Program-made: the position numbers and the translations under genes | The notes under the pieces: generated by a model | The model's input: only the letters and a program-made list of their open reading frames with translations | Database searches by the model: none | Told to the model about the DNA's origin: nothing | Part shown: positions 2 to 9,289 of the stretch, in pieces | Position numbering within the stretch: the first letter of the stretch is position 1 | Layout: each line of letters starts with the position of its first letter | Source of the DNA: a virus | Virus genome (UHGV): UHGV-0194914 | Reading direction: 5' to 3' (one strand) | DNA: 10,507 nt

Positions 2-1426
2 GATGGGAAAAATTACCTAATGTTAGCACTGGTGATGGTTGGCAGTGCGCTGGTGATCGCCTTAGGGTTAGGTAAGCTGTTTGGCTGGGATATTGGCCTG
101 ACGGCCGGTATGTTAGCAGGCTCTATGACGTCGACACCGGTTCTGGTCGGTGCTGGCGATACACTGCGTCATTCCGGCATGGAAAGCAGGCAGCTCTCAC
201 TGGCACTGGATAATCTGAGCCTCGGGTATGCCTTAACCTATTTAATCGGTCTGGTGAGTTTGATTGTTGGTGCGCGTTACTTGCCGAAATTGCAGCATCA
301 GGACTTACAGACCAGCGCCCAGCAAATCGCCCGCGAACGTGGCCTGGACACTGATGCCAACCGTAAGGTTTATTTACCGGTGATCCGCGCCTATCGCGTC
401 GGCCCGGAACTGGTGGCCTGGACCGACGGCAAAAATCTGCGTGAACTGGGTATTTATCGACAAACCGGCTGCTACATTGAACGTATTCGACGTAACGGGA
501 TTCTGGCAAATCCAGACGGTGATGCCGTGCTACAAATGGGCGATGAAATAGCGTTGGTAGGCTATCCCGACGCCCATGCCCGACTCGATCCCAGCTTCCG
601 TAACGGTAAAGAAGTTTTCGATCGTGACCTTCTCGACATGCGTATCGTCACTGAAGAAGTGGTCGTTAAAAACCATAACGCTGTAGGTAAACGTCTCGCA
701 CAACTGAAGTTGACCGATCACGGTTGCTTCCTTAACCGCGTCATTCGTAGCCAGATTGAGATGCCGATAGATGACAACGTCGTGCTTAACAAAGGTGACG
801 TTTTACAAGTCAGCGGCGATGCCCGCCGCGTAAAAACCATCGCCGATCGCATCGGCTTTATCTCGATTCACAGCCAGGTCACTGACCTGCTGGCATTCTG
901 CGCCTTCTTTGTTATTGGGCTGATGATCGGGATGATCACCTTCCAGTTCAGCACATTCAGTTTCGGCATGGGGAACGCTGCCGGGTTGTTATTCGCCGGA
1001 ATTATGCTGGGCTTTATGCGTGCTAACCACCCGACCTTCGGTTACATTCCGCAGGGTGCATTAAGCATGGTGAAAGAGTTCGGCTTGATGGTGTTTATGG
1101 CAGGCGTTGGTCTGAGCGCCGGTAGCGGTATTAATAACGGCCTGGGCGCGATTGGCGGTCAGATGTTGATTGCCGGATTGATTGTCAGTCTGGTGCCCGT
1201 GGTTATCTGTTTCTTGTTCGGTGCTTATGTATTGCGAATGAACCGCGCGCTGTTGTTCGGCGCAATGATGGGCGCACGTACCTGCGCGCCGGCAATGGAG
1301 ATCATCAGTGATACAGCTCGCAGTAACATCCCGGCGCTGGGCTATGCGGGCACCTATGCAATCGCCAACGTCCTGCTGACGCTGGCAGGGACAATCATCG
1401 TCATGGTATGGCCAGGATTAGGATAA
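2..1426 (+). CDS. ybjL: Putative transport protein YbjL (AAE-family transporter with two central TrkA-C/RCK_C-like soluble domains); 5'-partial, as the reading frame is open from the window start
   Basis: Long ORF (track 20..1426) whose frame stays open back to base 2 (DGKNY precedes the first Met). Hydrophobic membrane segments at both ends flank a soluble middle region with a duplicated motif (..[21 protein letters not shown].. / ..[15 protein letters not shown]..). Matches enterobacterial YbjL from memory; no search run. Confidence 0.88.
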
Positions 1427-1538
1427 AACTGAAGTTGCCCTGAAAATGAAATTTTTTTGCACAACCGCAGAACTTTTCCGCAGGGCATCAGTCTTAATTA
1501 GTGCCACTGCTTTTCTTTGATGTCCCCATTTTGTGGAG

Positions 1539-1583
1539 CCCATCAACCCCGCCATTTCGGTTCAAGGTTGATGGGTTTTTTGT
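1539..1583 (+). terminator. Candidate rho-independent terminator downstream of ybjL
   Basis: Perfect 10-bp inverted repeat cccatcaacc (1539-1548) / ggttgatggg (1566-1575) with a 17-nt loop, followed directly by tttttt (1576-1581). The T-run is on the + strand, so it would terminate ybjL-direction transcripts. Confidence 0.5.
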
Positions 1584-1661
1584 TGCCTGAAATTTAAGCT
1601 GTTTAAATTCATGATGTTAGAAACACTGTTTTTTAATGATGGCGACAAAATGGCGGCAGCG

Positions 1662-1880
1662 TCAAAGAGAGAGCGCCACCTGTCCTGATTTCATTGGATG
1701 CGGCTGAACCGGATTTGACTCTTTTGGCGTTGCAATCGAACGAACAAAAGTTTCATGGGTAACAAAAGTATGGCTGCAGTTAATGTTCTGGCACTGGTTG
1801 TAACGCTCTTTGGTCAATGAAGATACCTGAAAACTGCTGCGAGTATGGGCGGCACTTCCACACAGTGGGCAAATCATCAT
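1662..1880 (-). CDS. ogr: Ogr-type zinc-finger late-gene transcription activator (P2 Ogr / 186 B family)
   Basis: ORF 1662..1913; the likely start is Met12 (MMICPLCGSAAH..). It carries a CxxC..(x)..CxxxxC zinc-binding pattern (CPLCG ... CQNINC) and is ~72 aa, matching P2 Ogr (MFHCPLCQHAAH..CQNVNC) from memory. It sits immediately downstream of D, as in P2. Confidence 0.82.
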   Translation of the reverse strand: MMICPLCGSAAHTRSSFQVSSLTKERYNQCQNINCSHTFVTHETFVRSIATPKESNPVQPHPMKSGQVALSL

Positions 1881-1970
1881 TTTTCGAGTTCTCCCCATTT
1901 TTGCTAAATTCACAATAATGATACCGCATTATTCCATTTTGCAAACTTAAAAGTTCTCCATTGCGAAGAA

Positions 1971-3071
1971 TCATTCCATTTCGAAATCATCAATCCTCAC
2001 TTCAAGCTCCAGACTGGTTGTAAAACCGTTATCGGGGCTGACGGTATGCGTCAGAGTCGTAATGGTCCATTCCGCATCATCTATCGGCTGTTTAAAGCCA
2101 CTGACTTTCACTGGCATTTCCGTGTAGAGATCTGCCCGACCTTCTGCCAGTTGTAGCGAGAATGACGCAACGCCGCGTTGCAGGCGTTCCCACTGCATTT
2201 TCGCCGCCCGTTCGGCGTTGCTCCGGTTGGCATAGGTGCGATTAAGTACCAGCACGTTTTCATCTGTACCCACCAGGTAATCGCCCTGCTTCGCTTCCGG
2301 CTCTTTCTTCTGCTTCTTAGTCCTGCGCTTACGCTTCACCGTGGTACTTTCTTTCTTCGCAGGTTCGCGGGTATGCAACCAGCTGGCAATTACGCCCGTG
2401 TAGGCTCCGCGATCTGCCAGGGTAAAGCGGTGACTGTCGCCGTCCTTGCGTGTGATAGTGATCACTGGCAGTGGTTTACCAGTGGCGTTTTTGCCCTGCC
2501 CCTGCCGGATGAATAACAGATTGCCATTTTTCACCGACGCGATGGCACCGTACTGTCGCGCCAGCCGCATCAGAAAACTGCCGTCACTCTCATTAGTCTG
2601 GTCTATATGCTCCACGGGTTTATCTGACAGGTCTTTACCCAGTGCCATCTTCAGCTTGTGCCGCGCGGCTATTTCCTTCACCACTTCCCCGACGGTGGTC
2701 TTATGCCACGATTTTTCACGGCGGGTATTCAACGTTTCCCGAAAATCAGCACTTCGCGCCCGGATAGTCAGGCGGTCCGGTGCGCCAGTGTGTTCAATCT
2801 CGTCCACTGTGAATGCCCCTTTAGGGAAAAGCGGCTGCCCCTTCCAGCCCAGCGCCAGCGTAATGACCGCACCACGGCGCGGCAGCACGATTTTTCCGTC
2901 AGCGTCGTCCAGCTCCAGATCAAGCTGGTCCGCTTCAAAGCCCCGGTTATCCGTCAGCGTCAAACTCATCAGGCGGTTATCCAGCACAGTGGTGATATCC
3001 CTGCCCTCAATACTGATGCTGAATGCGGGAGTTTTGTTGCCTTTGTTAAGCAGTTCAGAGCTGAAATTCAC
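1971..3071 (-). CDS. Phage tail protein D (P2 gpD, late control gene D family)
   Basis: 366-aa ORF with a lysine-rich internal linker (KRKRRTKKQKKEPEAK) and the gpD-like N-terminal motif (..TPAFSISIEGRDITT..). Its start overlaps the stop of the upstream U gene, and it follows U as in P2. Confidence 0.85.
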   Translation of the reverse strand: MNFSSELLNKGNKTPAFSISIEGRDITTVLDNRLMSLTLTDNRGFEADQLDLELDDADGKIVLPRRGAVITLALGWKGQPLFPKGAFTVDEIEHTGAPDRLTIRARSADFRETLNTRREKSWHKTTVGEVVKEIAARHKLKMALGKDLSDKPVEHIDQTNESDGSFLMRLARQYGAIASVKNGNLLFIRQGQGKNATGKPLPVITITRKDGDSHRFTLADRGAYTGVIASWLHTREPAKKESTTVKRKRRTKKQKKEPEAKQGDYLVGTDENVLVLNRTYANRSNAERAAKMQWERLQRGVASFSLQLAEGRADLYTEMPVKVSGFKQPIDDAEWTITTLTHTVSPDNGFTTSLELEVRIDDFEME

Positions 3072-3553
3072 GACAGCAGCCCTCCCACCGTTTTACTGAT
3101 ATCGCTTAAGGCAGACGTTGCCGTGTCCTGCAGATTATTCAGTTGCGCACTGAGATCACCGAACATATCGGACAGGGATTCATCCACTCGTTTGAGCGAC
3201 AGGGTGAACTCAATCCGGCGCGGCATACCGTCGCGGAAAAACTCCGTTTTAGTCTGATTCAGTCCCTCAATCACATACATGCCGTAAATCGTGCCGCTGC
3301 CTTCAATCAGGGGCCATGCTTTCCCCTGTTCTGCCATCTGCTCCAGTGCCAGCAACGACAGCCTGCCGCCTGTTATCTCCGGCATAAGAACACCGGAAAG
3401 CGTCAGCATGTCGTTTTCCGGTCCCAGAAACTGCGTGGACGGACGTCGGTTTACCCGACTGTTTGCCGCATGTCGCCAGCTGCGTTGATACTGCAGTTCC
3501 TGATACGGAACGGTGCGCAGCATAAACACGTACAATCCCAGCACCATCATCAT
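3068..3553 (-). CDS. Phage tail protein U (P2 gpU family)
   Basis: 161-aa ORF, a size typical of gpU, lying between the tape-measure remnant and D. Stop/start overlap with neighbours on both sides. Confidence 0.8.
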   Translation of the reverse strand: MMMVLGLYVFMLRTVPYQELQYQRSWRHAANSRVNRRPSTQFLGPENDMLTLSGVLMPEITGGRLSLLALEQMAEQGKAWPLIEGSGTIYGMYVIEGLNQTKTEFFRDGMPRRIEFTLSLKRVDESLSDMFGDLSAQLNNLQDTATSALSDISKTVGGLLS

Positions 3554-4479
3554 GCGTCGTATCCCCCCTGATCGCTGTAGTTACTCCTGGCTTTTGCCTT
3601 CAGCCTGCGTTCACGTTCATCAAGCTGGCGTGCCACCTCCCGCGCAATATCCTGCGCACTTTGTCCTGGCTGCGTCTGAATGATGATCTGCATCGGTGCC
3701 TCAATCCGTTGAACGGGCGGCACAGTGGCTGCGCGACTCACAATTGCTTCTCCACCTTTCGCGGGAAGTGCCAAAGGGTGCAACGGTGGAAGCTCTGCTG
3801 GCGCGGCAGCAACGCCCATCATTCCGGCAACAACGGCAGCCAGTGCAGCTGTATTTCTCCGGCTGGTCACATTTGCCGGGCCGTTAACAATTTCCGGCCC
3901 GTTTTCACCGACGATGCCAAACTGCCCGCGCGGGATATACCCTCCGCTGTCATACATCCCCGCAAAGCCATATCCCCATGATGGAAAACCACCCGATGGC
4001 ATCATCACTTTACCGTCTGCATTCACCGTCGCAGGTTGCTGACGCGTCACGCTTTCCGGCAGTTTTGCCTTTGCGGCCTCTTTACTGACAATGCCGAGCT
4101 TCTCCAGCAACCAGGAAACGCCGGATTTCAGGGAGTCCAGCGGATGCATGACCATATTCAGCCCTTCCGCCAGTGCCTCCCCGAATCGCCGCCCCATTGC
4201 CGCTGCACTCTGCAGTTCGGCAGAGGTCGACTTAACGGGCGTCAGCAGATCAGTAAACCAGCCCCACAGCGCCTGTACTTTGTCGCCAATCCACTGGAAC
4301 ACGGGCTTAAGCGGTTCGAATGCTGCACTGACGGGACCTGCCGCCGCTTTGAATCCTTCCACCACGCCACCAAGAAATGCGGTGATGGGTTGCCAGTATT
4401 TCCAGACAACCAGCGCCACGCCCGCCAGTGCAGTAACCACAAGACCTATCGGACTGAGCAGAGCACCTATGGCAACAGA
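3550..4479 (-). pseudogene. Tail tape-measure protein (P2 gpT family), C-terminal ~300 codons only; N-terminal ~60% missing
   Basis: ORF 3550..4440 begins at a GTG, and the frame stays open upstream to ~4584 with no ATG. The hydrophobic segment ([25 protein letters not shown]) and Ala/Gly-rich C-terminus are typical of tape-measure proteins. At ~296-310 aa it is far shorter than a P2-type gpT (~800 aa), and sheath, tube and E genes are absent between G and this remnant. Confidence 0.7.
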
Positions 4480-4597
4480 TGATGAAACGAAACTGTTACT
4501 GGCATGGAAAAAATATCGCGTGCTATTGATGCGTATTAATACTTTAACAGCACTCGATATTGAATGGCCTACGCCTCCGGCAGTTCAGGCCAGATGA
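4468..4597 (+). pseudogene. Inverted C-terminal fragment of a second tail-fibre assembly (Tfa) gene, convergent with G
   Basis: The last ~42 codons of + ORF 4091..4597 read [42 protein letters not shown], matching the conserved Tfa C-terminal motif ([22 protein letters not shown]) from memory. Upstream codons in the same frame show no Tfa-like character. Its stop (4595-4597) lies inside the last codons of G on the opposite strand. Confidence 0.5.
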
Positions 4598-5180
4598 CAT
4601 CCGGCGCGGTGCTGGTATCTGTTGCCGTCACCGCGTCAATGTAATCCAGCACAGCGTTAAGTCGGGTGTTTTCTGGCTGCGTCAGCTTCCGCCCGGCCTG
4701 CAATTTCAGTTGAATCAGACTGATGGAAGCCATTGCAGTATCAATCAGCGACTGGCGTTGTGCTTCTGCTGCATCTACTGCGGCGCTATGCTGTGCATCG
4801 GTATCCGTCACCCATTTCTCACCATCCCATTTATCGTATGGTGTTAACGGGGCGATAGTGGTTGTATTATCAGGGTAATCACCCGGAGCTGTGATTTCTT
4901 TTGATTCTCCTGTTTCGGTGCTAAAGACGATTTCACCGCGATGGTCTGGCACATATTCCCATGAGTTAAAATCTGCAGAACGGCAGATTGCATAACCAGC
5001 CTTATGTGTAACTGGTGCATCTAAACAAGAACATGCCGGGATACCGACGCCAACCGCAAGATATTCAGTTGATATGGAAATATATTCCCGCGTTTCTCCG
5101 TTGTAGTTGTAAACGGTAATGAAGCCAGCCTCTGTGGCAAATCCGTTTTCATCCAAAGTGATTTTTTTTGTGGTCATCAT
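4569..5180 (-). CDS. Tail fibre assembly protein (P2 gpG / Tfa family)
   Basis: 203-aa ORF immediately downstream of tail fibre H with a 4-bp overlap. The C-terminus (..[22 protein letters not shown]) carries the Tfa signature. Confidence 0.8.
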
Positions 5181-6694
5181 GCTGCCCTTACAATGTAGTT
5201 AAATGCAATGTTACGTGGCCTTGTTTCTGCTGATGTTCTTGCACTCCTGGATAAATCAAGTGTCACACCATAGTAACTAAATGCATTACCAGTTGATGGA
5301 GCGGCATATTTAACCCCAGAACTAGAACCAACATTAAAAACTCCAGATGCTGAGGAAGCTGACCCCATAGTGTTATCAATCAGAGAACCCGTAACATTTT
5401 GCATAGCGTCAAGTTGTTCGCTTAATAAAGCGCGTCCACTATCAACATCACGCCCGTCATCCCAGCCACGAATAAATTCACCTCGTAAATCAGGCAATTT
5501 ATTTGTCGGATAAGCCTTTGCCAGTTCCGGGTATTCTTCAGCAGAAAAAACCGCACCGTTGCATTTCAGCCAGCCTGTTGGAGGTGTCTCAGAAGGCCAC
5601 GGAACAGGCGCACCAACAGGTAATGCAGAACCTTCTCCCAAACCAAGGTATGTGAGAAGACCAGCTACATCTTTTCCACTCAAATTGGTAAGCGTATTGT
5701 CCAGCGGTTGTTTACCTGCCAGCGCATTAAGCATTGTCGTGGCAAAGTTCGGATCATTCCCCAGTGCCGCCGCCAGTTCGTTCAGTGTATCCAGTGCAGC
5801 AGGTGCAGAACCCACCATTCCTGCAATCGCCGATTTCACAAAAGCCGTAGTGGCAATCTGTGTATTGTTGACCGACTGCGCCGCCGTGGGGGCTGTTGGC
5901 GTTCCGGTGAGTGCCGGACTCGACAACGGTGCTTTTAGTGCCAGCGCATTGTTAATGGTGGTACTGAAATTCGGATCATTGTTAATGGCTGCGGCTATTT
6001 CTTTCAGCGTGTCCAGCGTGGCTGGCGCACCATTAATAAGGGCCGTCAGTGCCGCCTGTACAAACGCAGTGGTCGCAACCTGCGTGGTATTATTCCCCGC
6101 CGCTGGCGTTGGCGCTTTGGGGGTTCCGGTAAATGTCGGGCTGGCTTTTGGCGCGTACTGTGAATGAGGGTCCTGTGCAGCAAGATGTTTTGCCATCAGG
6201 TCATCCACGTACACCTTCAGCTCCAGTACCTTGTTATCCACATACTTGCGGGTTGCCAGCACTACAGCAGGGTCGATTTTCAGGGTGATATTGTCCGTAC
6301 TGCTGGTAATCAGCACCATGCGCACGGTCTGGGTGCGCCCGCTGCCTTCAGCCAGTTGCGGCTTATAGCTTTCCGGGCAGTTGCCCACGGCAATCAATGC
6401 CCCGGACTCATCAAACAGGCCCACTTCACGTATCCACCAACCGCCCTCGTTTTCAGGGATCACCTGTTCAGCAATAATCTGGCTGCTATTCTGCGGGTCG
6501 ATATAAAGCATATTCAGCGCAGCCCGGCGTTTCTCATTTACCAGTGCCGTCTGCTTTGCGTCCGGCGTTGGCAATACTCCGCCGCCATCGCCCACCGCCA
6601 TATGGGTAATTTTTAGCGGCACACCGAGCGCGGCGGCGCTGGCAAGTTTCGCCGCGCCAATATCCGTCAGCAGGGTATAAAATTTTGTGCTCAT
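5177..6694 (-). CDS. Tail fibre protein (P2 gpH family N-terminus; tandem fibre repeats; C-terminal phage tail-collar-type receptor-binding domain)
   Basis: 505-aa ORF. The N-terminus (MSTKFYTLLTDIGAAKLA..MAVGDGGG..AESYKP.LAEGSGR) matches the conserved gpH baseplate-attachment region. Two ~74-aa tandem repeats occupy the middle, and the C-terminus carries the motif PVPWPSETPPTGWLKCNGAVFSAEEYPELAKAY..LPDLRGEFIRG typical of tail-collar domains. Confidence 0.85.
   Translation of the reverse strand: MSTKFYTLLTDIGAAKLASAAALGVPLKITHMAVGDGGGVLPTPDAKQTALVNEKRRAALNMLYIDPQNSSQIIAEQVIPENEGGWWIREVGLFDESGALIAVGNCPESYKPQLAEGSGRTQTVRMVLITSSTDNITLKIDPAVVLATRKYVDNKVLELKVYVDDLMAKHLAAQDPHSQYAPKASPTFTGTPKAPTPAAGNNTTQVATTAFVQAALTALINGAPATLDTLKEIAAAINNDPNFSTTINNALALKAPLSSPALTGTPTAPTAAQSVNNTQIATTAFVKSAIAGMVGSAPAALDTLNELAAALGNDPNFATTMLNALAGKQPLDNTLTNLSGKDVAGLLTYLGLGEGSALPVGAPVPWPSETPPTGWLKCNGAVFSAEEYPELAKAYPTNKLPDLRGEFIRGWDDGRDVDSGRALLSEQLDAMQNVTGSLIDNTMGSASSASGVFNVGSSSGVKYAAPSTGNAFSYYGVTLDLSRSARTSAETRPRNIAFNYIVRAA
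5705..6161. repeat. Intragenic tandem direct repeat, two copies with ~222-bp period, inside the tail fibre gene
   Basis: The motif gccagcgcatt recurs at 5718 and 5940 and ggatcatt at 5751 and 5973, both offset by 222 bp. The encoded peptide units are ..NNTTQVATTAFVQAALTALINGAPATLDTLKEIAAAINNDPNFSTTINNALALKAP and ..NNTQIATTAFVKSAIAGMVGSAPAALDTLNELAAALGNDPNFATTMLNALAGKQP. Confidence 0.75.
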
Positions 6695-7296
6695 GGATTC
6701 ACTCTCATTGTGTCAATAACATGGACCGCCCCGCCTTCATGCGCGGTGCCACCGGAAATAATCGTTTCGTTGATATACGGATAGATCGTGATTTCTTCGC
6801 CAAGATAGCTGGCGGCTCCCACCCAATGCGGGCCGCTGGTCTGCAGATTGATGGACATGCCGATCATGTGGCGGCTACATGGTTTGGCATCGCTTATCAG
6901 TCGCTCAAGTTCCAGATAGGTATCTTCAGTGATGCCCTGGTCCTGCACGCCGATATCCAGGCGAAACGTGCCCGGTGCCTCTCCGGTCTGCCACCACTCA
7001 ATAATGCGGATCAGAAAGCCGAACGGCTCCACCACCCGCCGCACGGCACTGGTGGTCCCTTTATGCTGATGAATATAAAAAGCATCCTTCACCACCTGGC
7101 GCTTGACGCTTTCTGTCCAGCCCTCGTCCCAGCGATCCACAGAGAACGCCCAGGCGAGATAAGGCAGGAAACTGACCGGACAGGTTGCCGGATTCCACAA
7201 GTCACGAAGCGGCACCTGCAGATCAGAAATCCCGCTGCAGGTTTGCGCCAGTCGGCGCTCCAGTGGTGTTGAACCCGGTGGCAGCAGACTATTCAT
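6691..7296 (-). CDS. Baseplate assembly protein I (P2 gpI family)
   Basis: 201-aa ORF between J and H with overlapping stop/start junctions. Contains gpI-like conserved stretches (LWNP.TCP...LP.LAWAFSVDRWDE.W, GTFRLDIGV, AKP.SRH.IGMSI). Confidence 0.8.
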   Translation of the reverse strand: MNSLLPPGSTPLERRLAQTCSGISDLQVPLRDLWNPATCPVSFLPYLAWAFSVDRWDEGWTESVKRQVVKDAFYIHQHKGTTSAVRRVVEPFGFLIRIIEWWQTGEAPGTFRLDIGVQDQGITEDTYLELERLISDAKPCSRHMIGMSINLQTSGPHWVGAASYLGEEITIYPYINETIISGGTAHEGGAVHVIDTMRVNP

Positions 7297-7963
7297 CCGT
7301 TCCTCCGTTGGTTACGCTCCACTGCGTACATGATGCCGCCTGTGTTTTGTTCAGGACCACATCCGCCAGAGGAGAAGCCAGCTCCACACGCTGCACCCCC
7401 TCAACATGCAGGGCGGCAAAGATGGCGCTACGGCGAATATCCCGACCAAGACGCGTCTGACTGGCGATGTACTTCTGCAGGCTGGCTTTTGCCGCTGCCA
7501 TTACCGGCTCTGCTTCCGGTCCAGGATAGAGAAAAATGGTGGCTTCCACGCGATACGGGATGATTTCTGCGCTGCGAACCGTAAGACGGTCAGCCACCGG
7601 GCGGACGTTCTCACTGTTCAGAGCTTTTTCCACCACGTCCAGCAGGTCTTTTTCTGCGGTTCCATCGCCTTCGCGGCTAAGGACAGTCAGCACCACCTCT
7701 GCAGGTGCCGGGCTGGTTGCACTGGCATCCGCCACCCGACCGTCGGCGCTTCGGGCATGAAATTCATAAGCTGCAGTTGGCCCCGCAACAGAAAGCCCTT
7801 CAAAGGCTGCAGGCACACGCAGGCGTAACGCTTCATCGCTTTCCATCACAGCTGCAACGGACGGCACAGCGTCATTATCAGCAGGCGTCACCGTCAGGCG
7901 TTTCACGTTGTAGTTGGCAGCGAGCTGGTCAAGATCGCTGCCCATCGCGTATCCAGCCCCTGA
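7289..7963 (-). pseudogene. Baseplate assembly protein J (P2 gpJ family), N-terminally truncated by ~80 codons
   Basis: ORF 7289..7945 (218 aa), with the frame open a further 5 codons upstream to 7960 before an in-frame stop at 7964-7966. The sequence (..DLDQLAANYNVKRLTVTPADN..FEGLSVAG..YEFHARSADGRVAD..YLYPGPE..LGRDIRRSAIFAALHVEGVQRVELASPLADVVLN) aligns with the C-terminal ~220 residues of a ~300-aa gpJ from memory. Confidence 0.75.
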
Positions 7964-8280
7964 TTAAACACACCTTTTACATACACCCAGCGCGGCAACT
8001 GTCGGCACGCATCCGCCCAGCGCCGCTGGTTGAGCAATTTCACCAACGTGGAACTGCAGGCATTGCCCGTTCCCACGTTGAAGGCAAACGACACCACCGC
8101 GTCATACACCTTCTGCGGCGGCTGTTGCTTCACACACCTTTCCAGCACCCGCTCCACACGTAGCACGTTGGAGATCAGCCCTTCTGCTGCCTGTCGTTCC
8201 GTAATGGTTTTGCCGGGAATGACGCCCGACGTATTACCAATGCCGTCGGTCCAGACAAACGGTGACGGATAAGGCGTCCA
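7903..8280 (-). pseudogene. Phage lysozyme (GH24, T4-lysozyme/P22 gp19-type endolysin) lacking its N-terminal region, including the expected catalytic Glu
   Basis: Minus-strand frame open from 8280 down to the stop at 7903. It encodes ..VWTDGIGNTSGVIPGKTITERQAAEGL..VYDAVVSFAFNVGTGNACSSTLVKLLNQRRWADACRQLPRWVYVKG.., which fits the GH24 pattern (TIGxGHT.. / YDALVSFxFNxGxGAFxxSTLLRKLN..W / RW.YAGGK). There is an in-frame stop at 8281-8283 and no start codon before the conserved core. Confidence 0.7.
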
Positions 8281-9097: not shown

Positions 9098-9289
9098 ATG
9101 CTTGGTAAGGTATTTTTTGTGGTTTTATCATGCTCTTTGTTATTAAACCCACTAACTACCTATGCTAAAAATTATCCTTGTTCTGGGAAAAAGGGAGGTG
9201 TCTCTCACTGTACCTCCGATGGAAAGTTCGTTTGCAATGATGGAACTATTAGTAAATCAAAAAAAATCTGTACTAAAAACTCGCGATAA
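9098..9289 (+). CDS. Small secreted Cys-rich basic peptide (63-aa precursor; predicted Sec signal peptide, ~40-aa mature peptide with 4 Cys); function unknown, a moron-like insertion between cI and int
   Basis: Strong SD (GGAGG, 9087-9091) sits 6 nt before the ATG at 9098 and only 15 nt after the cI stop. The N-terminus [23 protein letters not shown] has n-, h- and c-regions with a TYA-type cleavage site. The mature part [40 protein letters not shown] is Lys-rich with C-x9-C-x7-C-x11-C spacing. The region is markedly AT-rich compared with the tail genes. Confidence 0.55.

Follow-up and report, generated by a model that had tools for sequence, protein, structure and literature searches.

A 42-codon tail-fibre assembly gene fragment in a cryptic P2-like prophage of Escherichia coli, very probably a relic of a Pin-type invertible segment

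A puzzling 42-aa 'tail fiber assembly protein' gene call lies beside a truncated tape-measure gene and runs tail to tail into an intact gene of the same family. The question is what this short copy represents and how it came to adjoin the tape-measure gene. The locus was analysed in a window of 10,507 nucleotides (UHGV virus genome UHGV-0194914). An initial annotation, made from the letters alone, had likened the arrangement to the centre of an invertible tail-fibre segment of the Mu G / P1 C / e14 type. Following comparison with related prophages, the fragment at 4469-4597 is very probably what is left, without function, of an invertible tail-fibre segment of the Pin type (Din-family serine invertase), cut by a 5,771-bp deletion in a P2-like prophage. 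The relic belongs to a long-known kind of system and is an ordinary decay product; it explains the gene call and has little import beyond annotation.

The window is a piece of the E. coli chromosome carrying a degraded P2-like prophage, located between rybB/ybjL and rcdA. All features are collected in Table 1. Relative to fuller relatives, further internal deletion junctions were found at 7950/7951 and 8256/8257. Because the sheath, tube and E genes and most of T are lost, and two more deletion junctions are present, the prophage is cryptic.

Table 1. Features of the window, in order of position (L003, L004 and L005, related prophages described in the text).
Feature	Position	Strand	Remarks
ybjL, 3′ part	20-1426	+	
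RybB sRNA gene	1506-1584	+	Rfam RF00110, 105 bits; between ybjL and the ogr end of the prophage
ogr	1662-1913	-	prophage gene
D	1971-3071	-	prophage gene
U	3068-3553	-	prophage gene
Tape-measure (gpT) remnant	3550-4469	-	colinear with full-length T of L004 and L005
Deletion junction	4468-4469	.	TA (2 nt) common to both parental sequences; base-by-base comparison with L004 flanks
tfa' relic	4469-4597	+	codons 109-150 plus stop, conserved C-terminal module only; Caudo_TAP match; L003/L004 identity
Convergent overlap of tfa and tfa' 3′ ends, 29 nt	4569-4597	both	conserved centre of invertible segment
Tail-fibre assembly gene G/tfa, intact (gpG / TfaE type, 202-203 aa)	4569-5180	-	Pfam Caudo_TAP
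Tail-fibre gene H, 505 aa	5177-6694	-	Pfam Phage_tail_fib and Collar; colinear with L004 H
Orphan pix-type crossover site, 26 bp, TTCTCCCAAACCAAGGTATGTGAGAA	5633-5658	+	inside H; identical to L004 site
I	6691-7296	-	prophage gene
J remnant, then lysozyme remnant	after I	-	
CI-type repressor, ydcA-like gene, integrase	beyond lysozyme remnant	+	

The plus-strand end had been read as the C-terminus of a second Tfa of which some 42 codons survive, and both points were borne out: the fragment measures exactly 42 codons plus the stop, and the residues encoded by 4472-4594 (41 aa) match Pfam PF02413 (Caudo_TAP) at profile positions 95-131 of 131 (E=2.1e-12). With 47.7 bits against a cut-off of 22.1, the fragment passes the curated threshold of the family. 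It is listed in public gene calls as a 42-aa Caudo_TAP ORF. At the nucleotide level, 129 of 129 positions are identical to the last 42 codons and stop of a 150-aa tfa' of L003 and L004, two complete E. coli genomes in which tfa' is an annotated tail-fibre assembly gene inverted against tfa; accordingly, 42/42 residues equal residues 109-150 of the L004 product. G matches the whole Caudo_TAP profile (E=1.5e-32) and shares 98% amino acid identity with L004 tfa. When the fragment, G, tfa' and the reference invertase were scanned against NCBIfam, none of them reached a curated cut-off.

A complete Tfa, with an N-terminal fibre-binding and a C-terminal domain, is not present in the fragment, which covers only profile positions 95-131/131 and residues 109-150/150. 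In Tfa proteins, a variable N-terminal domain binds the fibre and a conserved C-terminal domain serves trimerisation (PMC9608196). The 42 residues that survive are those of the conserved C-terminal helical module, and the fibre-binding N-terminal domain has been lost. The ATG at 4469 is an internal codon of tfa' (Met109), and no Shine-Dalgarno-like sequence precedes it (ACCTATCGGACTGAGCAGAGCACCT upstream). No plus-strand promoter-like site was detected in 4000-5300 by promoter scanning, and the combined terminator and promoter scan of the same interval returned nothing exceeding shuffled expectation; a weak terminator-like hairpin at 4601-4615 does not rise above chance level. Judging from the absent Shine-Dalgarno sequence and promoter, the relic is probably without function. 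A longer plus-strand ORF of 168 aa (4091-4597) is chimeric, being antisense to T over 4091-4469 and then running in frame into the relic. Because its family signal is confined to its last 37 residues, this ORF is almost certainly not a gene.

The stop of G at 4569 on the minus strand and the plus-strand stop at 4597 had been taken to overlap by about 30 nt. An ORF check gave 29 nt, and the peptides quoted for the two ends were correct. In L001, L003, L004, L005 and in e14 of K-12 the annotated genes likewise overlap by 29 nt, and the sequence of the overlap is identical in all of them. Since it is found in e14 and in intact relatives, the overlap is normal for the module: it forms the conserved middle of invertible fibre segments of the Pin type and was not produced by the deletion. 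As a separate observation, the homology of HK97 and HK106, which have no second tfa, and of several other modules to the window is lost at ~4556/4557, 13 nt past the G stop, and the e14 tfaP and L005 tfa' cassettes part ways immediately before the last ~20 codons. The conserved region that encodes the Tfa C-terminus has the look of a mosaic boundary used repeatedly in cassette exchange.

Among known systems, the e14 P-segment of K-12 with its invertase PinE (stfP-tfaP >< tfaE-stfE, pinE) bears out the comparison made at the outset. Its chaperone genes lie tail to tail with the 29-nt overlap and identical centre sequence, ~62 nt surrounding the overlap show no difference from the window, the tfaE-type chaperone shows ~93% nucleotide identity, and the crossover motif TTCTCCCAAACCAA(G/C)GT is common to both. 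The differences are equally clear. Upstream of the last ~20 codons the tfa' cassette of the window is unlike tfaP, and e14 is a different type of prophage, called lambdoid in the cited literature, whereas the window is P2-like. Moreover, e14 has retained both sites and pinE and still inverts (PMC4272514), while the window has one site and no invertase.

In phages Mu (G segment, Gin) and P1 (C segment, Cin), alternative fibre C-termini and their cognate convergent assembly genes are located on a segment that is inverted by a serine invertase. The likeness of these to the ancestral module of the window is one of logic and not of sequence comparison; they are functional systems, and their site and cassette sequences differ from those of the window. 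The position had also been equated with the accessory Z/fun locus of P2. The slot is indeed the same, between G and the pF promoter/FI, and holds fun(Z) in P2; in the lineage of the window, however, it held an inversion module, and no Fun(Z) homology was found in the window (tblastn, best E=0.11). Conversely, the 365-nt spacer after G in canonical P2 contains no inverted tfa relic.

An intact inverted cassette, which the initial annotation had proposed to look for in P2-like prophages, was found in two of them, with invertase-H'c-tfa' inverted against tfa-H between G and FI. In the first, the complete P2-like prophage of NZ_CP182383 (L004), the genes run D, U, T (3,078 nt), E, E', FII, FI, a 188-aa recombinase, H'c, tfa' (+), tfa (-), H, I, J, W, V and onwards, where H'c is a fibre C-terminal fragment without an N-terminus of its own. 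The second, in NZ_CM147848 (L005), occupies the rybB/ybjL-rcdA site just as in the window and is the same prophage, with a full tail cluster and an equivalent module. The recombinases of both show 86-87% identity to PinE. In L004, the arms of a 26-27 bp inverted repeat lie at 7331-7357, between the recombinase gene and H'c, and at 9163-9189, inside H; the motif pair TTCTCCCAAACCAA(G/C)GT likewise flanks the e14 P-segment and the modules of L001, L003 and L005. The P2-like modules, including that of EPEC E2348/69, have the gene order and position between G and FI in common with the window, which is 96-99% identical over H, tfa and the 3′ end of tfa'; they differ in that the window lacks 5,771 bp and is unable to invert. 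Inversion in P2-like prophages of EPEC and in e14 has been shown experimentally (PMC4272514), and the modules of the window's relatives presumably invert as well.

Alignment with L004 placed the breakpoint at base level. Window positions 2243-4469 align without gaps to L004 1-2227, and 4468-7951 align without gaps to L004 7999-11482 with 96.2% identity. The match to T is perfect through 4469 and that to tfa' begins, equally perfect, at 4468, giving a breakpoint at 4469/4470. The tape-measure remnant had been placed immediately beyond the fragment, and T homology does adjoin it directly. The junction stands; the T remnant ends at 4469 and not at 4440, which is only the GTG start of a mechanical ORF with a 296-aa product. 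Relative to L004, the window is without L004 2228-7998, from mid-T to tfa' codon 108. On the tail side the 5′ 2,158 nt of T (its 5′ 70%), E/E', FII, FI and the intergenic pF promoter region are lost, which agrees with the earlier reading that sheath, tube, E and the 5′ part of T are missing and was confirmed against both L004 and L005. What remains of T is the 3′ 920 nt (C-terminal ~306 codons) of the 3,078-nt gene. On the fibre side the losses are the invertase gene, the invertase-proximal crossover site, H'c and tfa' codons 1-108 (72% of tfa'). Because the breakpoints are unlike the crossover site and the sole pix-type site is intact in H, the deletion appears to be the result of illegitimate, microhomology-type recombination and not of a site-specific event. 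It offers a clean case of prophage decay through microhomology-mediated deletion, and the exact breakpoint is now set for one of the three deletions that turned the rybB/ybjL P2-like prophage into a cryptic remnant.

The invertase and the alternative fibre C-terminus had been described as gone. In tblastn searches of the window, all matches had E>0.6: neither an invertase (L004 invertase as query, best E=0.67) nor H'c (best E=1.9) was detected. Overlooked until now was a remnant of the switch inside H. A crossover-site scan of the window gave one match, with 0 expected by chance, at 5633-5658; its partner beside the invertase gene is deleted, and no second site with up to three mismatches occurs in the window. 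The part of H lying 3′ of the site, 5177-5632, is the exchangeable C-terminal cassette. An invertible segment is accordingly not present as such: no serine invertase is adjacent, only one 26-bp site remains, and there is one full set of cassettes (Hc and tfa), with just 42 codons of tfa' and no H'c. Descent from such a segment is evident from 99% identity to the intact module over 4470-5180 and from the identical crossover site and overlap centre. A switch left with one site and with neither invertase nor alternative cassette cannot be expected to operate; on sequence grounds it appears dead, with H-tfa locked in one orientation, and the orientation of the segment is the same in all four assemblies that carry the junction. 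In principle, the orphan pix-type site in H could still be a substrate if a Pin-family invertase of another prophage (e.g. e14) and a second site share the cell.

The history that we favour runs as follows. In the intact phage, the invertase gene has the sheath gene FI on one side and the fibre genes on the other, and two inverted 26-bp crossover sites, one inside H and one beside the invertase gene, bound a segment of ~1.86 kb. This segment holds the exchangeable fibre C-termini Hc and H'c, each with its own chaperone gene (tfa and tfa'), tail to tail. Flipping it would swap the fibre tip and chaperone joined to the constant part of H, and host range would change. A single illegitimate deletion of 5,771 bp, sealed at the 2-nt TA microhomology, would then have left the 42 C-terminal tfa' codons, the orphan site in H and a fibre fixed in one orientation.

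The junction was searched for in public data by lookup of the junction-specific 296-aa T' product. It was recovered from four separately assembled samples (ERZ28657546, SRR7124805, SRR16555209 and ERZ28576562), whose copies match the window with 100% identity over stretches of up to 10,440 nt, including the called 42-aa Caudo_TAP ORF. Because it is identical in four independent assemblies, the junction is not an assembly artefact; the four copies look clonal. None of 5,426 complete E. coli genomes has the junction in one piece, and a scan for exact matches to its 38-nt sequence gave 0 hits in GTDB species-representative genomes. The window itself is a mosaic: T/U/D are closest to L002 and L005 (98-99%) and tfa'/tfa are closest to L003 and L004 (99%). 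L001 and L002, of the same prophage lineage, carry different deletions in the same region.

Several other explanations were weighed against the preferred one. The plus-strand frame could be a chance ORF or an antisense shadow cast by the T remnant, to which the 168-aa ORF is indeed antisense over 4091-4469, or the ordinary 3′ UTR of G. The first is contradicted by T homology ending at 4469, by the nucleotide identity of 4469-4597 to tfa' and by the Caudo_TAP match (E=2e-12), the second by canonical P2, which is without an inverted tfa relic after G, and by HK97, without a second tfa, whose homology ends at ~4556. Both of these objections, foreseen in the initial annotation, fail, and the reading is refuted. 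Nor can the junction itself be credited to an assembly chimera or to the invertase acting by site-specific deletion at pseudo-sites, and we attach next to no probability to either origin. The window seemingly derives from metagenome-type assemblies, which would favour a chimera, but this is refuted by the recurrence of the junction, with 100% identity, in four samples that were assembled separately. Deletion between misoriented sites is an occasional activity of serine invertases; here, however, the endpoints do not resemble the 26-bp site, and the only match, with three mismatches allowed, is the intact site in H. Invertase-mediated deletion was therefore rejected, neither breakpoint being like a crossover site.

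A more serious competitor to a single deletion is a history of two or more steps, in which an L001-like deletion from T to the 5′ end of the invertase gene was followed by a loss of ~1.2 kb comprising the rest of the invertase gene, H'c and the 5′ part of tfa'. L001 has the layout T' (1,194 nt)-invertase' (first 249 nt)-H'c-tfa'-tfa at the same chromosomal site as the window, which, relative to L001, is without only L001 7071-8302; moreover, the one T breakpoint and different right ends of L001 and L002 point to serial or independent decay in the lineage. Against this, the tfa'/tfa segment of the window has 85% identity to L001 versus 99% to L003 and L004, so that L001 itself is not the ancestor, and an intermediate with the cassette type of the window was not found. 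A stepwise course is therefore considered unlikely. We infer one step, the single 5,771-bp deletion being the most parsimonious history. Much less probable still is that expression of the 42-codon ORF starting at 4469 gives a free-standing Tfa C-terminal module, e.g. one that is dominant-negative for the Tfa chaperones of superinfecting phages. The ORF has an ATG start and appears among the gene calls of public assemblies, the conserved trimerisation part is common to many Tfa proteins (PMC9608196), and the locus is unchanged across several samples. Yet the ATG is merely an internal codon of tfa', with neither a Shine-Dalgarno-like sequence upstream nor a plus-strand promoter-like site in 4000-5300; the 100% identity of the four copies over up to 10.4 kb indicates that persistence reflects clonality and not selection, and the junction is missing from the 5,426 complete genomes. 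The further step, that translation yields a free Tfa trimerisation module hampering fibre assembly of superinfecting Caudo_TAP phages, as a domesticated anti-phage decoy, is even harder to credit.

With the relic of an invertible segment retained as the preferred reading, some observations on neighbouring and related loci remain to be recorded. The tape-measure breakpoint, at L005 ~6230-6235, is common to L001 (~7331-7336) and L002 (~7331-7335), with an overlap of ~5 nt in each, and the partners differ: in L001, T is joined at invertase codon ~83 and in L002, T is joined into tfa. A left end held in common while the right ends differ may point to nested secondary deletions or to a local hotspot. 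Among public contigs with the same 296-aa T' ORF, T' is fused to the 3′ end of gpO in L009, L013 and L015 and to the portal gene in L010, in each case a head gene; their T breakpoints lie ~21 nt 3′ and ~12 nt 5′ of that of the window. These four are independent large deletions in related P2-like prophages. A T-breakpoint hotspot, as the ~35-nt cluster formed by these contigs might be read, was rejected as ascertainment, the lookup favouring deletions that leave the same 296-aa ORF.

At the chromosomal flank, the rybB-rcdA interval is occupied by the P2-like prophage, the right end of which abuts the 3′ side of rybB; this suggests an attachment site at or beside the RybB sRNA gene. The other two internal junctions of the window each have a 2-nt overlap in the alignment pair. 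At 7950/7951, the 5′ part of J is joined to the lysozyme gene, with L004 11483-14534 or L005 15126-19737 absent; at 8256/8257, the lysozyme remnant is joined to the region upstream of CI, with L005 20046-20792 absent. A SIR2-family gene of L005 (16391-17911), inserted between the baseplate gene V and a virion morphogenesis gene, lies in a stretch that is deleted in the window, and is probably an anti-phage defence moron.
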